A stretch of DNA of 64,000 nucleotides. Source: Shigella phage phi25-307. Below are positions 2,524 to 14,110 of the stretch, one piece after another; the stretch's first letter is position 1; every line of letters begins with the position of its first letter. The notes below the pieces were generated by a model, which saw nothing but the letters and a program-made list of their open reading frames with translations, made no database searches and had not been told where the DNA came from. The translations under genes were made by a program, and so were the position numbers. The stretch lies in the sequence record MG589383; one strand, 5' to 3'.

Positions 2524-3688
2524 CGAAATCTTCCATTTCGTCAAGGTCGTTTTCTATATCTGCTGCAGACGGAGCATCAGAAGTTTTAACCGGAACTTTA
2601 GTTGTTGCTTTGCAATTAATAAGGTCGTTAACAGCGTCATCAACTTCTTTAATAGAAGAGATAGCACCTAGTTTATATTTAGTTTCAATTGCATCTCGGA
2701 AAGGTTTGTGTTTAAACAACGGCCCCCAGAATTCTACACAATCAGTAGCTTTAGCACGCCATGATTTCTCTTCACGAATCATTTCGCCCGTTTCTTCGTC
2801 AAGGAATTCTCGAGCATACCAACCAGCTTTAGGCTTAACCACAAAACCAATTTCAGTTGCCATTTCTAACAAGCCACTGAATGGGTCGATACCACCATCG
2901 AAATTAACCGTGATTGGGAAAGTAGATTTCTCTTTAACTGTACGAGATTTTTCTGCTTTCAACGTGAAGTCATAACCGGTCAATTCTGTACCTTCTTTAA
3001 CCTGACGTTTAGAGATAAAGAATACGGTGTTAGCAGAGTAAAGAATACCTGTACCACCACCCATAATCTCTTTAGGATACAATCCGCCGATTTCCATTGC
3101 TGTATGGTTGATTGCAACACATGGAATATCTTTAATAGTCAGATAAGGAGTCACAATGCGGAACAGAGATTTAAGTGCCTTAGCACGAGACATATCACCT
3201 ACAACTTTCTCGTTCAACGCATCTTCGGTTTCTTTCTTAGATGCAGTATTACCGATTGAATCGATAAAGATAATAACTTTATCACCGCGTTCAATCGCGT
3301 CAAGCTGATTAGTCATATCAACTTTAAGTTGTTCGACAGATTGAATCGGAGTATGAACTACACGGTCTAAATCAACACCCATTGAACGAAAATAAGATTC
3401 TGAAGCACCAAATTCTGAATCATAGAACAAACAAATTGCATCTTTATATTTCTTCATATATGCTGCAACCATGGTCAGCCCAAACAACGTTTTAAAGTGT
3501 TTAGAAGGAGCAGCAAAAATAGTTAAGCCTGATTGCAACCCGGCATTCAGTGCACCACCTAATGCAATATTCAACATCGGAATACGAGTAGGGACTTCAT
3601 CGCGATTATTAAACAGCTTAGACTTAGTCAAGTCTGCAGTCATTTTAGAAGTAGAAGCTTTAATCAGACGAGATTTTAAATCAGACAT
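2516..3688 (-). CDS. uvsX: UvsX recombinase (RecA/Rad51 family)
   Basis: 390 aa; MSDLKSRLIKASTSK... N-terminus and acidic C-terminal tail as in T4 UvsX. Confidence 0.95.
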   Translation of the reverse strand: MSDLKSRLIKASTSKMTADLTKSKLFNNRDEVPTRIPMLNIALGGALNAGLQSGLTIFAAPSKHFKTLFGLTMVAAYMKKYKDAICLFYDSEFGASESYFRSMGVDLDRVVHTPIQSVEQLKVDMTNQLDAIERGDKVIIFIDSIGNTASKKETEDALNEKVVGDMSRAKALKSLFRIVTPYLTIKDIPCVAINHTAMEIGGLYPKEIMGGGTGILYSANTVFFISKRQVKEGTELTGYDFTLKAEKSRTVKEKSTFPITVNFDGGIDPFSGLLEMATEIGFVVKPKAGWYAREFLDEETGEMIREEKSWRAKATDCVEFWGPLFKHKPFRDAIETKYKLGAISSIKEVDDAVNDLINCKATTKVPVKTSDAPSAADIENDLDEMEDFDE

Positions 3689-3743
3689 TGTATTTTTTCC
3701 ATAGGCATCATTATATTTTACTCATGTTTAAAAGATAAGACGA

Positions 3744-3770
3744 TTATATACTAAGGGTTATACAGCATTT
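3744..3770 (-). promoter_or_regulatory. middle (MotA-type) promoter candidate upstream of uvsX
   Basis: minus strand AAATGCTGTA (Mot-box-like) - 12 nt - TATAAT. Confidence 0.35.
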
Positions 3771-3788
3771 AAAACTTTAAACAGGCTC

Positions 3789-4337
3789 TTAACGAGCCCA
3801 TTTGATAATTTCTGTAATCAAATAATTACGTTCGCTTGCATTAAATCCTATAACTTTGTTAGCACCGTCATGATTAAGTAATTGATACGTTTGGATTTTG
3901 TTATGAATTGCAAACTCTTCAAAATATGAAATGACTGTATTAAAACCGAATGAAGACAAAGTAATAAGATCGTCTTCAAAACTTTCAGTCATTTCGTTAC
4001 GTGTTAAAATAATTGTGAACACATCATGGTTTTGGCAAAGACGAACATAATCCTGTTCATAAACGTCAAGAACCGAGTCCGCATCTTGTCGAATACGTCC
4101 ATAAACCCAGTTACTAATATATCCACGGTCTAACAGATAAATCTTAGTAGGGTCTAAATAATTCAACATCGTTTCGAAACAGCCAACTTCATTTCGAGAC
4201 TTAACATCGAAACGTCCATTAACTGTTCGTTTAGGGAAATCAATCTTTACATATCTTTCACTAATTTCCATTATGTCATTAATGAAAGTTGTTTTACCAG
4301 CATTATCCGGGCCATCTACTAAAATAATTTTAGCCAT
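3789..4337 (-). CDS. P-loop kinase-like protein (nucleoside/nucleotide kinase fold)
   Basis: Walker A VDGPDNAGKTT near N-terminus; 182 aa; sits at the T4 bgt locus. Confidence 0.6.
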   Translation of the reverse strand: MAKIILVDGPDNAGKTTFINDIMEISERYVKIDFPKRTVNGRFDVKSRNEVGCFETMLNYLDPTKIYLLDRGYISNWVYGRIRQDADSVLDVYEQDYVRLCQNHDVFTIILTRNEMTESFEDDLITLSSFGFNTVISYFEEFAIHNKIQTYQLLNHDGANKVIGFNASERNYLITEIIKWAR

Positions 4338-4338
4338 T

Positions 4339-5238
4339 TTATTCCTCGATTACGACATCTTCGTATTTAGGTATATTATACGGTGAAGAAATTAAAGCAT
4401 TAAAGTAGATGAACTCACCAAGACCTGGATGGAATACTTCTTCAGGATTTTCGAAATATTGAATCTTCGGTCGTCCTTTAAGAATTTGATAGTACTCAGT
4501 TTTAGTTGGTTTAAAAATTCGAATCAGCGCTTCTTCAGGATACTTATTTCTGTCGAAGCTATTATTTGGATCGGTTATATAAAGCGGTTGACCTAATTGA
4601 ATTGCACATTCAACCACTTGTTCAAAACGATAGCACGGGTCACTAATTCGAAATGGATGAAAAATACCATCTAGATGAATAGGAGCCAAATCACCTACAA
4701 GACGCTGCATGATGGAAGGACGTATAACTTTCTGGGTTACGATAATCTTATTACCATCGGCACCAGCGTTAACCAGCACTTCCTTTTGACGTTTATTCAA
4801 CACAGTAGTTTGAAGTGAACGATTAACCGACAACATATCGGTTTTTAAGAATTCGTCAATATAAAAACGTGGTTTATTAGGGTCTGCAGTGATATTGAAA
4901 TTGAATTCCACATCAAAAGCGCCGTCATATCCAGTGATATCTGTGATTAGAAAATCACAATCATAATAAGCAATTAATGAATCAACCACAAATTCATTTT
5001 CAGACCAGAAATATTTACGAGTGTTATACGCGTTATCTTTATACCATAATGGAACAAACTTAAATTCTGGGAAAAGACGTTCACATTCTTTAATATCAGA
5101 TGCATTACGTGGATATGTAATCACATCACCCGGATTAGCACGGTGCAAATGAAGTTGGAAGTTGCCATCCTTAAGGATAGCGTACTGTCCAGTTTCATAA
5201 GACCGCATACTCAAGATAGGTACGCGGAAAATAGCCAT
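4339..5238 (-). CDS. hypothetical protein at bgt locus; candidate DNA sugar transferase
   Basis: 299 aa ORF; start overlaps gene 42 stop as TAATG; no known motif, function inferred from position only. Confidence 0.55.
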   Translation of the reverse strand: MAIFRVPILSMRSYETGQYAILKDGNFQLHLHRANPGDVITYPRNASDIKECERLFPEFKFVPLWYKDNAYNTRKYFWSENEFVVDSLIAYYDCDFLITDITGYDGAFDVEFNFNITADPNKPRFYIDEFLKTDMLSVNRSLQTTVLNKRQKEVLVNAGADGNKIIVTQKVIRPSIMQRLVGDLAPIHLDGIFHPFRISDPCYRFEQVVECAIQLGQPLYITDPNNSFDRNKYPEEALIRIFKPTKTEYYQILKGRPKIQYFENPEEVFHPGLGEFIYFNALISSPYNIPKYEDVVIEE

Positions 5239-5954
5239 TAGTCAAGGAATCCTTTAACATAATCAAAATCACGTTCAAACACATGGGCACTTACCATGGT
5301 ATGAGTATAATCACCAACTTCTACACCGCATTCGTTAGCGATATAATGAAGTAATTTTCCTTGGAGATAAAAATCCAACTGCATAACAACAGCACAGTTC
5401 TGAGAACGCATATGACAGTGGGTATAAAGCTTACCATCACGAATATAATAAGTCACTGAGTCAGTACATGGATATTCAAGCGTTTCGTCTGAATCAAGCA
5501 AAGCCTGATCAGAACTTTCTAGAATTTGGAACACAACTCTTCGAGAGTTAGGCTTCTCTTTAAGTTCTTTTAGAAGAGCTGGTAATTGGGCCACAATGCG
5601 AGGACCATAGAAAGTGTTGAAGTTCGCCGGCAAAACATCTGATTTTGGTTTAGAAATAAATTTAGCGACATTAGGATATGCCTTAAACGCTTCTTCTGCG
5701 TTGGTACCACCAGAAATCATAAACTTCCAGAAGTCTTCGGCATATTCATAAGAGATGCGGTTAATACGTGGGTCGGTCATTTTGAATGTTGACGGGGTAT
5801 CAACAACTACTGTCATAGACCCAATTTCATTACAACGTCCAATACGAGAATCAGTTACGAATTCCGGGTTTTCTAAAATTTCACGATTGACTGCTTTAAA
5901 TGCGGTTTGAAAATCTGCGGCTTTGATATATTTCATTGTGTTATGTTTTCCCAT
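5238..5954 (-). CDS. 42: dCMP hydroxymethylase (thymidylate synthase superfamily)
   Basis: 238 aa; C-T-D-S-V-x-Y-Y-IRDGK...MRSQN...HVF pattern matches T4 gp42 catalytic region; RBS GAGGTAAAC. Confidence 0.8.
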   Translation of the reverse strand: MGKHNTMKYIKAADFQTAFKAVNREILENPEFVTDSRIGRCNEIGSMTVVVDTPSTFKMTDPRINRISYEYAEDFWKFMISGGTNAEEAFKAYPNVAKFISKPKSDVLPANFNTFYGPRIVAQLPALLKELKEKPNSRRVVFQILESSDQALLDSDETLEYPCTDSVTYYIRDGKLYTHCHMRSQNCAVVMQLDFYLQGKLLHYIANECGVEVGDYTHTMVSAHVFERDFDYVKGFLD

Positions 5955-5973
5955 GTTTACCTCAATACAATTT

Positions 5974-5998
5974 ATTATATACTCAATTCGTAAAGCTT
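5974..5998 (-). promoter_or_regulatory. middle (MotA-type) promoter candidate upstream of gene 42
   Basis: minus strand AAGCTTTAC - 11 nt - TATAAT. Confidence 0.35.
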
Positions 5999-6233
5999 AT
6001 TTGAATTTCTTGACAATGTTGATATAACGTAAAGCTTCAGCATCGATACTTCCAAGAACACTATGAAGAAATGCATCAGCGTAGTATTCCAATTGAACAG
6101 GTTTCTTTAATCACTTTAGCCGCTTTAGTTTCAAACAGGCCCATCAGGGCCTTTTTAAGAATTTGTTCATTAGTGTTCAGTTTCATAGTCAAAATCTCTT
6201 CATTAAGTTGGTGGTTAAAAGTTTTTCTAGAAA

Positions 6234-7394
6234 TCATTCCGGGTACCTCAAAGCGTCATCAGAGTTAGTTATATCAATAATAGATATAGAGTTTTCTGCT
6301 AACCCATTTTTAGATAACTGACGTTTATAATATCTTTCACAATATGTACACGTCGTCCCGCAGATTTCATTAGCACAATCGAAATCTGGATGTCTGAACC
6401 ACCTTTTTTCTAAAAAGCCATCTAACAAAGAGGTTTCAATATTTACTGTATGTGAAAACTCAGTTTCATTTTCAAGAGTGAAAATAGTCTCTAAAGGCTT
6501 CCACAGTTCTAACAAATTACCTTCAAACTTTTCAGAAGCGTATGCTTCAAGAACTTTCAAAATGTAGTCTGTGCTACCTGTACGTCCTGAAACTTTGAAT
6601 TGAGTGATACCAATATCATTATAAAGTTTCAAATCTTGAGGACGAACAAAACGAGTTCTCAGCCAGTTAAATGGGTCTGTATCACGAGCTTTAATGCAGT
6701 GTTGCATTGGATATCCATTTAAGGATTTAGCATCATCAGCTGTAACATCAGTACTATGGAAAATATAGCAAGAGTCACGATAGCTACAATGTGTTGTATA
6801 CCCTTTACCAGCATTAGAACAGAACTCATTTACAAGAACTTCAAATATTATATTGTTCTTATTGCAAAACTCTGCTGCACGCTTCAGGAAAGAAACTGAA
6901 CGGTTCTTATGAATTCCACAGCAGACCTTTTTGATATTATACTGGTCATGCAAGTATTTGATTTGAGTTACAGCATCGACATGTAGAATTGTTGAAACTT
7001 CAATCTCAATGTCTTTATTGACTTCACGAACAATTTCCATAACAACAGGGTTAGCGATAGTAATACGCCATACGCCTATTGACCAAAGATACTGAACATA
7101 ATCCTGAATAGCTTTCTTCTTCCACTCAACTAGTTCTCTTTTTGAACCAGGATTTATCGTGTTGAGTGTATAGTTAAAGCAAATACCTAATTCGTTACAA
7201 CGTTTAACGTAATCTTCTAACATCTTTTTGTCAACGTCAGGAAGCCTAAAATCAGGTCTGGCTGCTACAAAAGCCATTTCTCTTGTAGAGCCGTATACTT
7301 CGTTTATCAAGCTATTAGGATAAGTTTTATTGAGCTCTACGATTTTATCAAGAAGAGCTAAATCAAAATTCGTTCCGATTTTAAAAGTATTCAT
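6234..7394 (-). CDS. hypothetical Cys-rich protein (386 aa) at imm locus
   Basis: long ORF; C-terminal cysteine cluster CANEICGTTCTYC; possible metal or Fe-S binding enzyme. Confidence 0.6.
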   Translation of the reverse strand: MNTFKIGTNFDLALLDKIVELNKTYPNSLINEVYGSTREMAFVAARPDFRLPDVDKKMLEDYVKRCNELGICFNYTLNTINPGSKRELVEWKKKAIQDYVQYLWSIGVWRITIANPVVMEIVREVNKDIEIEVSTILHVDAVTQIKYLHDQYNIKKVCCGIHKNRSVSFLKRAAEFCNKNNIIFEVLVNEFCSNAGKGYTTHCSYRDSCYIFHSTDVTADDAKSLNGYPMQHCIKARDTDPFNWLRTRFVRPQDLKLYNDIGITQFKVSGRTGSTDYILKVLEAYASEKFEGNLLELWKPLETIFTLENETEFSHTVNIETSLLDGFLEKRWFRHPDFDCANEICGTTCTYCERYYKRQLSKNGLAENSISIIDITNSDDALRYPE

Positions 7395-7453
7395 TTTTTA
7401 CATCTCGCGTTAATTGATGCGATGGTTTTTTTTTGCAGGTCTTACTTAAATTA

Positions 7454-7840
7454 TTATAGATTCGGTTTATATGATTTAAATGTTTCGAATTCGCCTTTAT
7501 TCATAAGAGCTTTGAATTCGTCAGGACGCATAGCTTTGTCGTCGATAATCCAATCATATACTGGTTTATGTGTTAGCAAATTATGGTACTTCAATCCAAT
7601 GTTTGCCAAGTTCTGAATCAGACTTGGGAGAATGTCAATTGCTATACGACCAGGACCTACTGACTTCATACCGCGAGCAGTGTAAAGCGTTATGGTATGC
7701 CCTGCATCATACAGGGCATTAATGGCAGACACCATTTCGACGTCTGGTTTGAAGTTCACGTAATCACGATTGTTATTCCACTCTGTTATACAATCATCGA
7801 CATCAAAACAAAGATTAAGCATGTTTTTTACACGGTGCAT
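7454..7840 (-). CDS. HAD-superfamily phosphatase-like protein
   Basis: FDVDDC (DxD nucleophile motif), LYTARG, conserved K, WIIDDK; ATG overlaps upstream stop as TAATG. Confidence 0.55.
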   Translation of the reverse strand: MHRVKNMLNLCFDVDDCITEWNNNRDYVNFKPDVEMVSAINALYDAGHTITLYTARGMKSVGPGRIAIDILPSLIQNLANIGLKYHNLLTHKPVYDWIIDDKAMRPDEFKALMNKGEFETFKSYKPNL

Positions 7841-9525
7841 TAGATTCGTTCCCATTGATGAGTGATATCGCCACCGATTGGACGATAAGAAACACCAGTT
7901 TCTTTATCAGTTAGTACCCATTTACCAGGATTTTTTGTAATCAGAGTAGCCGTTACAGGTTCTGCTACATCATAACTAATAGTGCCGTCCTGAAGTACAC
8001 GGCCCATATTACGTAATTGCTTAGTCAGAAGTTCCATACCTTTATAATATGCGGCTACCGCTTTAAGTGGATTATTCTTGAAATAACCACCTAATGCAAT
8101 CCAGATAATTGCTACAGCCAAATGATGATACTCATTAAACGAACTCATCTTTCCATATTTGTAAACTAATGGATTGATGTTAATAGTCACATTACAAGTT
8201 GTTTCATCAATAGTAAACTGTCCCCAGGTCGGATTAGCATTGAATTCATCATAACCTGAAACAGCATAAAGCACTTTAGCTTCATCATACAATTTTGGCC
8301 CGTAAATCTTGGTTTCACCAAAATATCCACGAGGGTCGATAAACTTGACTTCACCATTATCAGTAATCATAGTATTACTGAAGTTTGGGTCACCATGAAT
8401 AACAGAGTACTGTCCCTGAGAACGGTTATGATAACGAATAAGGTGTTCTAAAGCTTGTTTCAGCATTGGCTTCAGACGCCCAATCTTAGTGTAGTTCACA
8501 TGTGTGATTTTACCGAATGAATCAATCAATGGTTGAATACTTTCACAACGATCAATAACTTTCGTATAGAACTCTTTAGTGAAATCACGGCGAACAGTTT
8601 CAGGACTTACAAAATAAGTGTCTGTGCTGAATTTCAGTGCATCTAAAATTGCATCAACAATTTGTGGACGAGCAAGACTTGATTTGGATTTAATATATTC
8701 AAATGCCGGCTTACCTTTAATGCGTTCCATTTCAAAGTTATTTTCATTAACAGAAACTAACTGAGGAACTGAATCTGATTTCACTTTAAGATACCATGAA
8801 ATCTCATCTTTCTGAAGAGCTCGACCCTGTTCGGTTAATGCGAATTTAGTTACAGTTTCTTCACCAATTTCAACTGCATTAAAACTACGATTAAGTTCAC
8901 GAACTTCATGAGCTTTTTCAAGTTTAGGCATATCACCTAAATCAATTAGATTCATAAGCTCTGATTTATTGAATGCGCTGCCGTAAAGGAATTCTACGAA
9001 ATCACGTCCTTTGCAGTATTCATGAATTTCCTCATCAGTAGAACCCATATAGAATTCCCAGTCTTTGAACTGATAAATTCCTACAACATTACCACCTGTT
9101 GAACCTACATTAGTGATATTTTCACCGTCGAAATTATATCGACATTCGTCACCCTTAACATAGATTGCGTTAACATTCCAAGACCATGAACCAAAATCAG
9201 GAATAATATCACACCAGTTAACAATTACATTATGGCCGTCTAAATCTTTGTGTAATTTAGCAAGAGCATAAGCAGAACCATACGCTTCATCAACTGTACG
9301 AATAGTCACATTGAACCCTTCTTGCTCACAATAAGCTCGAACAGTTTCAGCAAATTTTGAATGAACTACTACAATAATTTCATCTGCACCAAGGTCAGAA
9401 TAAATTGTATACAAATTGCTCAGAATAGTGTCTTGTTTATAGTTAACAAGCACCTTAGGAATATGATGTGTTATTGGATACAAACGAGTTGCCAGTCCAG
9501 CACCAAGAATAACAGCTTTTTTCAT
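7840..9525 (-). CDS. bifunctional sugar-1-phosphate nucleotidyltransferase / sugar kinase
   Basis: N-terminus ILGAGLATRLYPIT..IPK (GxGTRLxPxT NTase signature); C-terminus HGDPNFSNTMI...FIDPRG (APH/choline-kinase Brenner motif). Confidence 0.85.
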   Translation of the reverse strand: MKKAVILGAGLATRLYPITHHIPKVLVNYKQDTILSNLYTIYSDLGADEIIVVVHSKFAETVRAYCEQEGFNVTIRTVDEAYGSAYALAKLHKDLDGHNVIVNWCDIIPDFGSWSWNVNAIYVKGDECRYNFDGENITNVGSTGGNVVGIYQFKDWEFYMGSTDEEIHEYCKGRDFVEFLYGSAFNKSELMNLIDLGDMPKLEKAHEVRELNRSFNAVEIGEETVTKFALTEQGRALQKDEISWYLKVKSDSVPQLVSVNENNFEMERIKGKPAFEYIKSKSSLARPQIVDAILDALKFSTDTYFVSPETVRRDFTKEFYTKVIDRCESIQPLIDSFGKITHVNYTKIGRLKPMLKQALEHLIRYHNRSQGQYSVIHGDPNFSNTMITDNGEVKFIDPRGYFGETKIYGPKLYDEAKVLYAVSGYDEFNANPTWGQFTIDETTCNVTININPLVYKYGKMSSFNEYHHLAVAIIWIALGGYFKNNPLKAVAAYYKGMELLTKQLRNMGRVLQDGTISYDVAEPVTATLITKNPGKWVLTDKETGVSYRPIGGDITHQWERI

Positions 9526-9706
9526 GTTGTGGTCCTCATTGGTAAGTAGGAGTATTGTACACTATTCTAGTTAAAGCATTCATACTTTGCTTGTAGTCCA
9601 ATCATAATCCATCCAATTACAAGTGTTGGAATCATTACCGGAGCCGTTAAGCTCCAGTAGATAGTCATGACAAGCATCAATAGTAAAAGTCCTATTGTTA
9701 TTGCTT

Positions 9707-10342
9707 TCATTGTTCGCCTCGTAACATGGCACCTAGTGCACCGCCAGGGTGGAACTTAAGGAAGTCATTAGAGGTAAATCCACGTTCAGACGAAAGGTTG
9801 ATAGCAAACGTATCGATAAGCGCTAACAACAATGTAGTGGACATAGTCGGAGCCAGAGAATTCTCATCAACCTCTACTGCGATGCCTGTACAGAAAGAGT
9901 AATCAAAAAGGGCTTCATTTTCTTGTGGAATGTCTGGGTTACAATGCAACAGAATCTGTTTGACGTTCGGACGAATCATTTTAAGATGCTTAGCCACACC
10001 TATCATTTCTTCAGTTTTACCAGAACGACTAATATGAATCAACACATCATTAGGCGCAATGAATCCTGCATCACCGTGAGAATAATGCCCGGTGTTCAAG
10101 TACATACTCGGGATACCGAGTGAAGCAAATGTCTCAGAAGCTTTAGTTGCAATATTAGCATTCTTACCAACACCTGTAATAATTACTCGGCTTTCATAAT
10201 TACTAAGTCCCGGACGTCGAAGAGTTTCTAGAATAGCATTATAACGAGCAGGGTTTTGACTAATTACTTTGGCCATAGCGGCCAAAGAAGAAGATTGTTT
10301 TATGATTGCGTCAATAGCGATAGTAATAGGAGTAGTTTTCAT
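9707..10342 (-). CDS. SIS-domain arabinose-5-phosphate isomerase (KdsD/GutQ family)
   Basis: ITGVGKNANIATKASETFASLGIPS...HGDAG...ISRSGKTEE...HPGGALG aligns to KdsD SIS core. Confidence 0.85.
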   Translation of the reverse strand: MKTTPITIAIDAIIKQSSSLAAMAKVISQNPARYNAILETLRRPGLSNYESRVIITGVGKNANIATKASETFASLGIPSMYLNTGHYSHGDAGFIAPNDVLIHISRSGKTEEMIGVAKHLKMIRPNVKQILLHCNPDIPQENEALFDYSFCTGIAVEVDENSLAPTMSTTLLLALIDTFAINLSSERGFTSNDFLKFHPGGALGAMLRGEQ

Positions 10343-10382
10343 ATTTCTCTCATTTAATTAGTTTACCGTCCATGTCATTATA

Positions 10383-13094
10383 TCAAAAATCGAACATATC
10401 GAACAGAGATGCTTTCTTCTCGTAATCGAGTTTCGCTGCTGATGTGAATCCTTCAAGTGGTTTAATAAATGTCTTCTCAAGGAGAACAGTGTAGTCCATC
10501 CAATGAAGTACGTCGTCTTTAATTAAATCTGTGATTTCAGTACCAGAAGGCCATGCGATACATTTATCACCGAATGGGTTTCCTTCACGTAAAGGCAGAA
10601 CATATACTTTTTCACCTTCTACAACTTGTGGTGCATCGATATTACCTTTGATAGCACGGTTATACGTCAGAATTCCACGAATATGGAACGGGCATTTGGG
10701 ACCAGGGAATCCACCTACATCGTATTTAGCAATGTTATTCGCAGAAGATACCGACGCGATGCTAATATAATTCAATTGACGGAATTCTTTTTCAAACTCT
10801 TTAAAATATTCTTGTAATGATTCTTCACCTTCTTGAAGCATACGACGAATACATTCTTTAAGAGCTTTCTGTACTGCTTTAGGAGTCGAAGATTTCTGAG
10901 TCTCTAGACCCATGATTTTGAGTTTAGGCTCAGCGTAACGAGTACCTTCCATATCCCATACGTTTAATGCATAACGTTTCTTACCAGTCCAGAATCCACC
11001 AATACCTTTAGAACCAAGTGGAGGCCCAGCGATAGCTTCTCGGTCCATGAACATTAAGTGTTGTTTATTGTTCATGTATTCACACATTTCACGGAAACCT
11101 CTATCAATAGCTGGTTCCATACGTTCACGTGCAAACTTATCTAAGAAGTCTACCCAATGGTTGGTATCACGGAATTTAGATTCACCAACCTTATCGATAA
11201 TTTTATCAGCAGATACGTAAATAGAGTCTGTATCACCATAAAGAACGAAAGCTTCACCTTCTGTACCGCAAACTTCATTCAGATATTCATTAACTTTACG
11301 TTCAATCCACTGTAAAGCCATTTGTCCGAATGTTGTGATTGCAGTAGCATTACGCAAATCATAATAACGGAACCAAACGTTGCCAAGTGCACCATAAAGT
11401 GAGTTGATAAGCAATTTACGGTTAATTTGGGCAGTCATACCTGCAACTTCAGTACGTTGAGCTCTAAACAACATTTCATTAAGAGATTTAGCAGACAACT
11501 TTTTAATCTTTTCTTTAATCTCATCGCTGAAGTCGAAACGATAATCAACATCTAATGGTTCGTCAACAGAAAGATTAGGATTATGCAATGCCTCTTTAAT
11601 TATTTCACCATTACGTTGAGCTGCAAGCATGTAACCTTTATGTTCTTTACGTTGATTAAAGACCTTAGTGATTTCAGTTGGAACTACACCATCACGGTCT
11701 TTATAATACATCATGCCGTTAGGAGAACAACTGTACACATCAGAAGGACGTTCAGCAACAGCGTTAATATAATCATGCAATGGAGCTACTTTAAACGTTC
11801 CTGCTATTGTTTCTGGGCTAATATTCACTTGGCGAATAATACTTGGATACAGAGATGTAAGGTCGAAACTCATTACATATTTGTATCGATTTGGAATAGG
11901 TTCCTTAACAAAAGCGCCAGGATAAGGTTGAACCGGGTGAGAACGACCTTGTGGAATCACCTTGTTCTGCTCTTTAAGGCTATTAAAAATAATAGCATCC
12001 CATGTTTTAATTGGGCTAAATACAGATTGAATCTGAATTTTAGCATAATAACCCATGTCCAAACTCAAGTTGATGAACTGACGCTTAGCATCAATTTGCA
12101 ATACACGATACACATCGATAATGTTATAAGAAATATATCGTTGGTGATTGCTTTCACGAAGCTTAGAAATAGGGCCGTCATATTTCAGTTTACCAACGTT
12201 CAATTCAAATTCTGAAATGTAATCCAGAGAATATGACGGTTGATTGGTAAAAGAGAATTTTTTGTAAAGGTCAATGTAATCAAGAACAGAGATACCGAAC
12301 AATGTAATGATTTCACGAGAACCATACATGTTTTCGATAACTTTAACACGAGTTTTACGATGTGGTGATAAACGTTTCGCAGTAGATTCGCCAAAAATAT
12401 TCTTGATTCGGTTATACACATACGGAATATCAAATGACTCAACGTTCCATCCAGTCAAAATGACAGGAGTTTTCTGTTGCCAGAAGTTGAGATATTCCAT
12501 CAACAATTCTTTTTCGTTATCGAACGGCATATAAATGATTTTATCGATAATTTCGGATGGAACTTCATCACCACCTTGTTCTTGAAGCTTAGCCGCAATT
12601 TCGATAGACCATTCTTCTACATTACCATATGGAGAATTCAATAGATCAAATACGTAGAACCTGTCGTCAATTGAGTCATAATGGGTGATAGCATCAATCG
12701 GATGTTTTGCTTGTGAAGGCTCAGGGAACCCATCCGGAGATGTTACTTCGATGTCGAAGTTAGCCGCACGAATTTTTGTATGGTCGTATTTGATTTCATA
12801 GTTATAAGTGTCAGACAAATACGCCAATTTGAAATCGTCCATGCCAAGTGCTTCAAGACCGATATCTTCCATGCGTTTAATCCATTGGGAGGCATCACGC
12901 ATATTAGCGAACAACTTACGAGTACACGGCTTACCGTAGATATCGAAATATTTCGTAGCCTGACTTTCCGGACAATGAGCAAACAGTGATGGTTTATATT
13001 CTACTTCACGAGTACGTTCACGGCCGTTAGAATCGATGTAACGTTCAAAAATTGAATCACCAATCTGTTCAACCGTTAAGTAAAATTCTTTCAT
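10383..13094 (-). CDS. 43: DNA polymerase gp43 (family B)
   Basis: 903 aa; exo motifs FDIEV, NIIDVYRVL; YGDTDS polymerase motif; matches recalled RB69 gp43. Confidence 0.97.
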   Translation of the reverse strand: MKEFYLTVEQIGDSIFERYIDSNGRERTREVEYKPSLFAHCPESQATKYFDIYGKPCTRKLFANMRDASQWIKRMEDIGLEALGMDDFKLAYLSDTYNYEIKYDHTKIRAANFDIEVTSPDGFPEPSQAKHPIDAITHYDSIDDRFYVFDLLNSPYGNVEEWSIEIAAKLQEQGGDEVPSEIIDKIIYMPFDNEKELLMEYLNFWQQKTPVILTGWNVESFDIPYVYNRIKNIFGESTAKRLSPHRKTRVKVIENMYGSREIITLFGISVLDYIDLYKKFSFTNQPSYSLDYISEFELNVGKLKYDGPISKLRESNHQRYISYNIIDVYRVLQIDAKRQFINLSLDMGYYAKIQIQSVFSPIKTWDAIIFNSLKEQNKVIPQGRSHPVQPYPGAFVKEPIPNRYKYVMSFDLTSLYPSIIRQVNISPETIAGTFKVAPLHDYINAVAERPSDVYSCSPNGMMYYKDRDGVVPTEITKVFNQRKEHKGYMLAAQRNGEIIKEALHNPNLSVDEPLDVDYRFDFSDEIKEKIKKLSAKSLNEMLFRAQRTEVAGMTAQINRKLLINSLYGALGNVWFRYYDLRNATAITTFGQMALQWIERKVNEYLNEVCGTEGEAFVLYGDTDSIYVSADKIIDKVGESKFRDTNHWVDFLDKFARERMEPAIDRGFREMCEYMNNKQHLMFMDREAIAGPPLGSKGIGGFWTGKKRYALNVWDMEGTRYAEPKLKIMGLETQKSSTPKAVQKALKECIRRMLQEGEESLQEYFKEFEKEFRQLNYISIASVSSANNIAKYDVGGFPGPKCPFHIRGILTYNRAIKGNIDAPQVVEGEKVYVLPLREGNPFGDKCIAWPSGTEITDLIKDDVLHWMDYTVLLEKTFIKPLEGFTSAAKLDYEKKASLFDMFDF

Positions 13095-13106
13095 TTAATT
13101 TCCTTT

Positions 13107-13122
13107 AGACGAGTTATTGTCT
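13107..13122 (-). promoter_or_regulatory. gene 43 translational operator hairpin (stem AGAC/GUCU, loop AAUAACUC)
   Basis: minus strand AGAC-AATAACTC-GTCT then AAAGGAAATTAA-ATG; loop identical to the known T4 gp43 operator loop. Confidence 0.6.
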
Positions 13123-13150
13123 TTTGTTTGTTGATGAACTTATTATACTC

Positions 13151-13168
13151 CAAATGGGACCGAAGTCC
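13151..13168 (-). terminator. hairpin ATGGGAC-UUCG-GUCCCAU between regA and 43 (terminator or RNA-stability element)
   Basis: 7 bp stem with UUCG tetraloop on minus strand; weak U-tract. Confidence 0.4.
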
Positions 13169-13175
13169 CATTGCT

Positions 13176-13544
13176 TTAATTACCAATTGTATATTTTGCT
13201 TTCAAAGTCCAGTCATCTTTCTGTTTAAAAGAGATAACACGGAAGTTATTAGTCAGGCCAAACAGATCTTCACGAGCAGAGTCTTCAATAACAATCAATC
13301 CCCATTCTTCAAGCAACTGGGCAATCGAATCACGTCGCTGATAGTCTTCACCGTCAATATCAACCTGACGTCCATCCATACGCAACATTTCTTTAAAGTG
13401 GACGATATAGTACTTACCTTGCTTTTGGAGGATATGACAAGACTGGTAAAGGACTTTATCCTTGTTATTAGCGATGCCCATACGAGTCAGAGTCTCTTTG
13501 ACTTTCAGAAAATCTTCAGGGTTCTTCAATTTAATTTCAATCAT
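13176..13544 (-). CDS. regA: RegA translational repressor
   Basis: MIEIKLKNPEDFLKVKETLTRMGIANNKDKVLYQSCHIL... matches T4 RegA; ATG at 13544. Confidence 0.85.
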   Translation of the reverse strand: MIEIKLKNPEDFLKVKETLTRMGIANNKDKVLYQSCHILQKQGKYYIVHFKEMLRMDGRQVDIDGEDYQRRDSIAQLLEEWGLIVIEDSAREDLFGLTNNFRVISFKQKDDWTLKAKYTIGN

Positions 13545-13546
13545 TT

Positions 13547-14110
13547 TTACCATTCCAATGCTAATTTTTTAAATTGTTTTTGTTCTTTCACATTTTTTGT
13601 AACTTCTTTGAGAAACTCATCAGTGACCATGGCCTTCAGTTCTTTAAGGACTATTGGCAACTTGTTATTTTTTTCAAGGAGCCGCTTATACTCAGTAGCA
13701 TCATTCATGTTGATTGTGTAATGTTTCATCAACAGTTTGATAACTAGTAACTCTGAAGTGTCTTCGACTAGTTTAGCCCATTTAGAGAATCGACGACCAC
13801 GCGGAATTGCCGCCATCATATAGTTGAAGTGCGCTTCATCACTTAATTCAGAACCGACTAAGTTCATCATGTAAACAGCTGGCATACATTCTGGGAACTG
13901 GGATAATGAGTTCTCAACCATAAATTTTGAGTAGTCGACCTGAGCAATTGACATAGATTTCTTTTCATTAATAGCATTAATGATTTTAAAGAATTCATTC
14001 TCAGGTTTTTCTTTAAACATATCAGCACATTTTTGAATCGCATCGGCGTCATTAGACTTCCATGCAATTTGGTGCTCGTTAAGCTGGACGTCATCATCGA
14101 ATAAGTTCAT
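13547..14110 (-). CDS. 62: gp62 clamp-loader small subunit
   Basis: 187 aa, position between regA and 44. Confidence 0.8.

Follow-up and report, generated by a model that had tools for sequence, protein, structure and literature searches.

[quoted passage not shown]

The sugar carried on the DNA of bacteriophage RB69 is arabinose (PMC6024577, PMC13326640), and several of the proteins that put it there have been described. Lee et al. (2026) reported that RB69 DNA bears both mono- and di-arabinosylated 5-hydroxycytosine, and showed experimentally that gp48, a ThyA homologue, makes 5-hydroxy-dCMP (PMC13326640). Arabosyl-5hoC has been identified by LC-MS and NMR in RB69 and in Mosigvirus NP (PMC13326640, PMC13390438). 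For the related phage HY126, the work of He et al. (2026), as it is recounted in PMC13326640, has AfhE phosphorylating arabinose-5-phosphate to the 1,5-bisphosphate and AfhF taking off the 5-phosphate, after which AfhE makes UDP-arabinose.

The gene product of interest here is the one predicted to supply the arabinose-5-phosphate, known in RB69 as gp55 (RB69p055, NP_861745). The original RB69 note on gp55 reads [quoted passage not shown]. Thomas et al. (2018) singled out ORF055c, which resembles GutQ and KdsD, as a candidate for making UDP-arabinose (PMC6024577), and Lee et al. (2026) proposed that gp55 turns ribulose-5-phosphate (Ru5P) into Araf5P for the same purpose, labelling this a computational assignment from structural similarity only (PMC13326640). 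RefSeq now names RB69p055 "arabinose 5-phosphate isomerase", and PHROGs v4 holds a dedicated family of that name under auxiliary metabolic genes. Among bacteria, E. coli makes arabinose-5-phosphate by means of KdsD and GutQ (PMC11301363), and both a delta-kdsD delta-gutQ strain and an assay for the Ru5P/arabinose-5-phosphate isomerase reaction have been described (PMC11301363, PMC10448790).

The DNA analysed here, referred to as the window, is a stretch of 64,000 nucleotides from Shigella phage phi25-307 (sequence record MG589383). Over 4.4 kb around the isomerase ORF it is 98.0-98.4% identical to Escherichia phages JS09 and RB69 and to some 150 further Mosigvirus genomes, a likeness by which the window is that of an RB69-like Mosigvirus. 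The isomerase itself differs little from RB69 gp55 (99.5% identity) or from its copy in HY126 (98.6%). Its orthologues in RB69, HY126, JS09 and DLP3 (gp83), all belonging to PHROG 5670, occupy the same place after gene 43 in the same module. Genes 52/53 and 46/47, which are split in the RB69 reference, are single ORFs in the window, and nothing else of substance differs. The assignment set out below is thus correct and already known, from RefSeq, PHROGs, Thomas et al. (2018) and Lee et al. (2026).

The predicted isomerase gene occupies positions 9707..10342 on the minus strand as one uninterrupted ORF of 211 codons, running from an ATG to a TGA, while the plus-strand frame over the same interval is riddled with stops. 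The preliminary description had credited this ORF with the five SIS motifs of KdsD and GutQ, and all of them are present: GVGKN at residues 57-61, IATKASETFASLGIP at residues 64-78, HGDAG at residues 89-93, ISRSGKTEE at residues 104-112, and HPGGALG at residues 198-204. It had also held that the CBS domains of the bacterial enzymes are missing, and this too is borne out. A Pfam scan of the 211-aa protein gave one SIS hit (1.1e-10) and none to CBS, whereas the same scan of E. coli K-12 KdsD returned SIS plus CBS, the latter at 2.8e-14. A BLASTP alignment pairs residues 16-207 with KdsD 23-202 (E 7e-34, 36% identity); the phage chain stops four residues past the equivalent of KdsD residue 202, where the KdsD CBS pair starts.

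The gene position needs one correction. The isomerase does share its strand with gene 43, the DNA polymerase gene (10383..13094, minus strand, from the ORF and the RB69 and HY126 annotation), as first described, but it is upstream of that gene in window coordinates only. Because gene 43 is also read from the minus strand, it lies directly 5' of the isomerase gene, which begins downstream, 40 nt 3' of the stop codon of gene 43. Across 3600..13800, neither sigma-70 promoters (33 sites against 38.6 expected from shuffled sequence) nor intrinsic terminators (5 against 5.2) were found in excess.

SIS isomerases share one fold. In NCBIfam the isomerase scored best with the three API models (TIGR00393, NF008141 and NF008581): KpsF/GutQ at 2e-32, KdsD at 7e-31 and GutQ at 9e-23. 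Regulators of the RpiR/HexR type followed at about 1e-6, and neither a GmhA nor a GlmS model reached E<=0.01. A profile search that placed the protein in another SIS subfamily, such as those last two, would have refuted the initial proposal; instead the arabinose-5-phosphate isomerase (API) subtype came far ahead of any other. The scores do stay under the curated cut-offs (112.8 against 203.7 bits for TIGR00393, 107.7 against 505 for KdsD), because the CBS pair that makes up half of the models is missing, and the isomerase covers only positions 2-153 of 268. Relative to the KpsF/GutQ/KdsD family, the protein has the API-subtype SIS domain and the active-site residues while lacking the CBS pair and a whole-protein score above cut-off. 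PHROG 5670, "arabinose 5-phosphate isomerase", was matched at 8e-116.

Structure comparisons lead to the same place. Only four entries were matched among PDB sequences, and all are of the API type: B. fragilis 3etn (3e-25), E. coli CFT073 c3406 5uqi (4e-23), the KdsD SIS domain 2xhz (4e-19) and Listeria 3fxa (2e-13). An AlphaFold2 model of the isomerase, built with 25 homologues, reached a pLDDT of 94.6 and a pTM of 0.90, and in a Foldseek search of the PDB with this model the top nine hits were 2xhz, 3etn, 5uqi and 3fxa entries, at 3e-13 to 2e-11. Against single-domain APIs of the 3etn/5uqi type the TM-score was 0.75-0.90 (E about 1e-12). A gap of more than 1000-fold follows, and only then come RpiR/MurR regulators, GmhA (6e-7) and GlmS (7e-7). 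On these grounds, far weaker matches in both NCBIfam and Foldseek, identities as GmhA, GlmS or an RpiR-type regulator were rejected. All of the computational tests that were run agree, and they support placing the 211-aa protein, as judged by its sequence and its predicted fold, with the arabinose-5-phosphate isomerases.

An isomerase of the same fold might nonetheless act on another sugar phosphate, a hexose or heptose, and feed a different nucleotide sugar. GmhA, GlmS and MurQ do appear lower in the Foldseek list, the Listeria structure 3fxa was deposited merely as a "putative sugar-phosphate isomerase", and a neighbouring HAD gene is labelled "phosphoheptose isomerase" in databases. We consider this very unlikely, as GmhA and GlmS are more than 20 orders of magnitude off by profiles and more than 5 by fold search, and the closest ligand-bound structure, the crystal of c3406 (5uqi), contains arabinose-5-phosphate. 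The sugar on the DNA of RB69 is, moreover, arabinose (PMC6024577, PMC13326640), and the heptose label sits on a HAD phosphatase; given its phosphatase profile (TIGR01689) and its AfhF role, we regard that label as a misannotation.

The residues expected of a working enzyme are in place. K60, H89, E112, E157 and H198 of the phage protein align with K59, H88, E111, E152 and H193 of KdsD, which we take to be active-site residues; KdsD mutagenesis and the work on 2xhz are reportedly the source for the catalytic role of these lysine, histidine and glutamate residues. A paper on B. pseudomallei KdsD gives cysteines as "likely catalytic", and not the K/H/E residues. None of the five varies among 25 phage homologues with identities down to 41%, and they are kept in 136-138 of 138 representatives drawn from a library of 1.8 billion proteins. 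Since the API positions are conserved in this way across the family, a degenerate, non-catalytic SIS domain seems unlikely. This bears on the idea that the protein merely binds a sugar phosphate as a sensor or regulator, in the manner of RpiR, MurR or HexR. RpiR-type proteins are indeed the next-best matches by both profile and fold, but the phage protein has only 211 residues and no DNA-binding domain, its API matches are far stronger, and its five active-site positions do not vary, so that a regulatory role is scarcely credible.

A SIS domain standing alone is not unusual for an API, as the closest bacterial relatives make plain. B. fragilis 3etn, E. coli CFT073 c3406 (5uqi) and Listeria lmof2365_0531 (3fxa) are, like the phage protein, about 200 aa long and consist of SIS only, with no CBS domains. 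These proteins are said, in papers from the Woodard laboratory, to be active APIs. The phage protein is roughly 30-40% identical to them, and by size, domain content and nearest relatives in sequence and structure it qualifies as a single-domain API; theirs is a role in Kdo or capsule synthesis, whereas that of the phage protein is predicted to be DNA glycosylation. Of the 20 library representatives that rank next after the phage proteins, 14 have fewer than 270 aa, and the CBS-bearing proteins of about 320 aa dominate lower down; with so many single-domain proteins among the nearest non-phage relatives, the stand-alone architecture is not in itself remarkable. E. coli KdsD, GutQ and KpsF (TIGR00393) share the same five residues and the same predicted reaction with the phage isomerase, at 36% identity over the SIS domain, and differ from it in their C-terminal tandem CBS domains.

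Read 5' to 3' on the minus strand, the genes run from gene 43 through the isomerase, a 47-aa ORF, a 561-aa protein, a HAD phosphatase, a U32 protein, a short ORF, a ThyA-like protein, a 299-aa glycosyltransferase and a thymidylate-kinase-like protein to uvsX, a layout syntenic with that of RB69 and HY126. The ThyA-like, AfhE-like, AfhF-like and glycosyltransferase genes thus lie on one strand between uvsX and gene 43, as in an Afh-type module, and their products are 97-99.7% identical to those of HY126 and RB69.

The 47-aa hydrophobic ORF (9567..9710, minus strand) starts within the isomerase stop codon (ATGA) and matches PHROG 3610 over its full length at 7e-27. It is 98% identical in HY126 and 60% identical, at the same position, in Erwinia phage Virsaitis27, an ORF coupled to the isomerase gene and kept across genera. 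The 561-aa AfhE-like protein (7840..9525, minus strand) is predicted to be bifunctional, with an N-terminal sugar-1-phosphate nucleotidyltransferase (Pfam NTP_transferase) and a C-terminal kinase, the latter matching kinase families weakly and being APH/choline-kinase-like by Pfam. It is 96.8% identical to its HY126 counterpart, and ORF052c/053c of the RB69 reference are the same gene split in two. The AfhF-like HAD phosphatase (RB69 gp51; 7454..7855, minus strand) matches the NCBIfam capsule biosynthesis phosphatase TIGR01689 at 4e-13 as well as PHROG 1238, and is 99% identical to the HY126 protein; an internal methionine that gives a product of 128 aa may be its true start.

Beyond these lie the U32-family protein (RB69 gp50; 6234..7394, minus strand), recognised by Pfam Peptidase_U32 at 7e-11 with a weak match to UbiU, and the ThyA-like 5-hydroxy-dCMP synthase (5238..5954, minus strand), predicted from its 98.3% identity to the RB69 orthologue gp48. 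The putative DNA arabinosyltransferase 1 (4339..5238, minus strand) is one ORF of 299 aa, with an identity of 98-100% to the two pieces in RB69 and of 99% to its HY126 counterpart; the role is that proposed for RB69 gp46:47 (PMC13326640). The thymidylate-kinase-like nucleotide kinase (RB69 gp45; 3789..4337, minus strand) was assigned from its ORF, its annotation and 97.8% identity to RB69. Given the close kinship with RB69, the virion DNA of the window phage presumably also carries arabosyl-5hoC.

Fusions found elsewhere, in some cellular or giant-virus proteins, bear on the same question. Two metagenomic proteins, P0203 and P0227 (E 6e-64 and 1e-65), combine a SIS domain with a homologue that spans the whole 561-aa protein, and in a third of 921 aa (P0210) HAD, SIS and AfhE-like parts are joined in one chain (E 7e-58). 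Such fusions lend Rosetta-stone support to a place for the putative isomerase within the AfhE/HAD pathway. The contig that encodes the triple fusion is giant-virus-like.

The gene might also encode a true API that sustains or alters the making of Kdo, LPS or capsule in the infected host, in the manner of KpsF, with no part in DNA modification. Cellular APIs do serve the Kdo and capsule pathways, and the likening of gp55 to a capsular expression protein in the original RB69 note belongs to the same line of thought. We hold this to be highly improbable, more so than a change of substrate, for the gene sits inside a DNA-modification module with no homologue of KdsA, KdsB or KdsC in the cluster, the isomerase tracks the close AfhE-like subfamily across phages of five host genera, and elsewhere the SIS domain is fused to AfhE-like and HAD domains.

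Taken with the family assignment, the gene context makes it very probable that the ORF encodes a SIS-only D-arabinose-5-phosphate isomerase acting as the entry step of a phage route of four activities that brings arabinose to DNA. The isomerase would draw D-ribulose-5-phosphate from the host pentose-phosphate pathway and convert it to D-arabinose-5-phosphate by an aldose-ketose isomerisation of the KdsD/GutQ type. The kinase domain of the 561-aa protein would then form arabinose-1,5-bisphosphate, the HAD phosphatase would strip the 5-phosphate from it, and the nucleotidyltransferase domain of the 561-aa protein would yield UDP-arabinofuranose, from which phage glycosyltransferases would attach arabinose to the 5-hydroxycytosine of phage DNA and so protect it from restriction. 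That the phage takes its pentose from the host pentose-phosphate pool, as was suggested at the outset, is also what Lee et al. (2026) proposed for gp55 (PMC13326640), and the gene context in the window agrees.

The logic of this route would mirror that of the ADP-heptose pathway, in which GmhA is the isomerase (acting on sedoheptulose-7-phosphate), HldE the kinase and adenylyltransferase, and GmhB the phosphatase. The order of chemistry and the folds correspond, with a SIS isomerase that turns a ketose into an aldose, an anomeric kinase, a HAD phosphatase that takes off the distal phosphate and a nucleotidyltransferase, and both HldE and the phage 561-aa protein fuse kinase and nucleotidyltransferase. 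That said, the phage route would handle a pentose rather than a heptose, and UDP rather than ADP; its isomerase belongs with the APIs and not with GmhA, and its kinase is APH/choline-kinase-like and not ribokinase-like.

Why a phage should bring such an enzyme may be a matter of supply. NDP-arabinose is, to our knowledge, not a normal enterobacterial metabolite, and hence the phage brings its own pathway. The isomerase itself is best read as a flux-boosting auxiliary metabolic gene and not as the sole possible source of arabinose-5-phosphate, since KdsD and GutQ are at hand in E. coli and some 90 related phages do without the gene. With about 62,000 cytosines in a genome of 167.6 kb (37.1% GC), 1-2 arabinoses on each and a burst of 100-200, each infected cell would need 0.6-2.5 x 10^7 units of arabinose. 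The host requirement for Kdo is about 2-4 x 10^6 units per generation, and by this estimate the phage demand for arabinose is several-fold above normal host Kdo demand. From such fluxes we infer that the phage isomerase most likely raises the supply of arabinose-5-phosphate and decouples it. Some regulation may have been lost with the missing CBS domains.

The distribution of the gene among phages adds to this picture. By tblastn, 274 phage records contain the isomerase and 366 the AfhE-like protein. About 90 phage genomes have an AfhE-like gene and no isomerase, and the isomerase is thus not indispensable for such modules. A transposon-mutagenesis preprint on Bas46 and LC53 yielded no essentiality data on the gene. 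In one of them, Klebsiella phage kv_tblp2, gene 43 is followed directly by a gene for an AfhE-like protein (44% identity) and then by those for HAD, kinase, U32, chorismate mutase, ThyA-like and glycosyltransferase proteins, with no isomerase gene in the locus. This group, made up of Klebsiella phages, Escherichia phages of the Bp7/dhabil type and some Vibrio phages, has a divergent AfhE-like protein that is about 42-44% identical. The isomerase co-occurs with the close AfhE subfamily in phages of Escherichia, Serratia, Erwinia, Proteus and Acinetobacter, and may mark an arabinose-specific branch of these modules. One could go further and suppose, quite tentatively, that the CBS-less isomerase does not simply duplicate host KdsD but is the deregulated, flux-setting and sugar-specifying step, that phages with the isomerase and the close AfhE make arabinosyl-5hoC, and that the 90 or so phages lacking the isomerase attach another sugar to 5-hydroxycytosine or rely on the host API; we would call this possible rather than probable.

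The U32 gene of the module raises a further possibility. Lee et al. (2026) enter gp50 as a "sugar or heterocycle reductase", with no mention of U32, and their discussion of other pyrimidine hydroxylation pathways, in tRNA modification, makes no tie to gp50 (PMC13326640). The U32 proteins RlhA, TrhP and UbiU/V are prephenate-dependent hydroxylases that work independently of O2, and RlhA makes 5-hydroxycytidine in 23S rRNA (PMC5727448, PMC6599085, PMC10990095). The phage U32 gene is present in 220 phage genomes at at least 80% identity, and every named host is a facultative anaerobe; the aerobe Acinetobacter is not among these hosts, although the isomerase occurs in 57 Acinetobacter phages. In Erwinia and Klebsiella phages the ORF that overlaps the U32 stop codon encodes a type II chorismate mutase (Pfam CM_2, 1.7e-11 and 8.7e-10, both above cut-off), with the ThyA-like hydroxylase gene directly after it. 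Chorismate mutase is the enzyme that makes prephenate. In Mosigvirus genomes the short ORF that follows U32 showed no chorismate mutase signature.

The U32 protein may, then, be a candidate O2-independent cytosine hydroxylase, and its pairing with a chorismate mutase suggests an anaerobic route to 5-hydroxycytosine beside the O2- and flavin-dependent gp48. Against this idea stand the low identity of the phage protein to its E. coli paralogues, only 17-21%, and an incomplete set of canonical Fe-S cysteines, of which two in four (the first and third) align with those of UbiU, UbiV and RlhA; a C-terminal CX4CX3CX2C is present. A BLASTP comparison of the phage protein with E. coli RlhA gave no significant match (E 0.05). 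Among the papers searched, none links the phage U32 gene to O2-independent cytosine hydroxylation.

The isomerase has been recognised since 2018 and its pathway was laid out in full in 2025-2026, and the present re-analysis offers independent confirmation together with corrected detail. Of possible further importance are which phages have or lack the isomerase, and the neighbouring U32 and chorismate mutase genes. If the tentative link between the isomerase and the identity of the sugar were true, the presence or absence of this one gene would predict DNA glycan chemistry from sequence. As the predicted entry step, the isomerase would tie the DNA-arabinose pathway of these phages to central carbon metabolism, and would mark the point from which the unusual sugar of their DNA armour originates.

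Inside the arabosyl-5-hydroxycytosine modification module lies a U32-family gene (RB69 gp50; 6234..7394, minus strand), which is also present in relatives (L005 5992-7502 and, in the Klebsiella phage kv_tblp2 locus, L006 6001-7403). A literature search found no published role for RB69 gp50. The U32 proteins RlhA, TrhP and UbiU/V are anaerobic hydroxylases that need prephenate, and the product of RlhA is 5-hydroxycytidine (PMC5727448, PMC6599085, PMC10990095). The U32 protein of the module may be regarded as a candidate O2-independent pyrimidine C5 hydroxylase. A search of phage genomes at a threshold of at least 80% identity recovered the gene from 220 phages, all the named hosts of which are facultative anaerobes, and at the same threshold none of the 57 Acinetobacter phages with the isomerase carries a phage U32 gene. 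In Erwinia and Klebsiella phages the U32 gene is overlapped by a gene for type II chorismate mutase, the enzyme that synthesizes prephenate, and the gene for the ThyA-like 5-hydroxy-dCMP synthase then comes next. Against the hydroxylase reading, phage U32 is very distant from its E. coli paralogues, and only two of the four canonical Fe-S cysteines align in it.

The slot taken by chorismate mutase in other genera is occupied in Mosigvirus by a short ORF on the 3' side of the U32 gene (5997..6237, minus strand; L001 3998-4237 and L003 11062-11184 in relatives' loci). Its frame and length vary among strains, from 79 aa in RB69 to 53 aa in the window and 40 aa in HY126, a relative with a syntenic module, and the source of the length differences is single-base indels at homopolymer runs. 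Because of this variability and the absence of a CM_2 signature, which was looked for in the Mosigvirus short ORF, this ORF may be decaying or non-coding.

The window also bears on the annotation of neighboring genes. The AfhE-like gene (7840..9525, minus strand) and the glycosyltransferase gene (4339..5238, minus strand) are each one unbroken ORF, of 561 and 299 aa, whereas the RB69 reference contains the split pairs ORF052c/053c and ORF046c/047c, each a single ORF here. The RB69 splits have been attributed to sequencing errors (PMC13326640), and the intact ORFs agree with that account. The HAD phosphatase gene (RB69 gp51; 7454..7855, minus strand) is named "phosphoheptose isomerase" in RefSeq and PHROGs. 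We reject this name as a propagated misannotation, since no SIS domain was found in the protein and it matches a capsule-biosynthesis phosphatase family.

The stop codon of the isomerase gene is overlapped (ATGA) by the start codon of a 47-aa hydrophobic ORF (9567..9710, minus strand; MKAITIGLLLLMLVMTIYWSLTAPVMIPTLVIGWIMIGLQAKYECFN), which PHROG 3610 matches across its entire length. Erwinia phage Virsaitis27 has a counterpart at the same position with 60% identity. In the RB69 reference the ORF is annotated in a shorter form of 36 aa, starting at an internal Met. Some relatives have genes for Seg-like GIY-YIG homing endonucleases within or beside the module (H17 NRG-P0074; L005 5352-5990), and one library protein (P0127, 369 aa) reads as a SegE/NUMOD3 and SIS fusion.

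Phage database counts give about 90 genomes with a divergent AfhE-like gene (28-44% identity) and no SIS isomerase, among them Klebsiella phages, Escherichia phages of the Bp7/dhabil/MN04 type and some Vibrio phages. In kv_tblp2 (L006 528-8991), the isomerase is absent while the HAD, kinase, U32, chorismate mutase, ThyA-like and glycosyltransferase genes are intact. Such phages may draw on the KdsD of their host, or the sugar that they attach may be another one.

Elsewhere these activities are physically joined. Metagenomic proteins P0203 and P0227 combine SIS and AfhE-like domains in a single chain of 711-788 aa, and a third (P0210, 921 aa; L004 3850-6615) combines HAD, SIS and AfhE-like domains. 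The contig of the 921-aa fusion also encodes a 2,337-aa ORF, a 2OG-Fe(II) oxygenase, a 1,081-aa helicase and an HMG-box protein; its proteins are rich in N, K and I, and it looks like a giant virus. This resemblance suggests that the same nucleotide-pentose pathway is present beyond phages.
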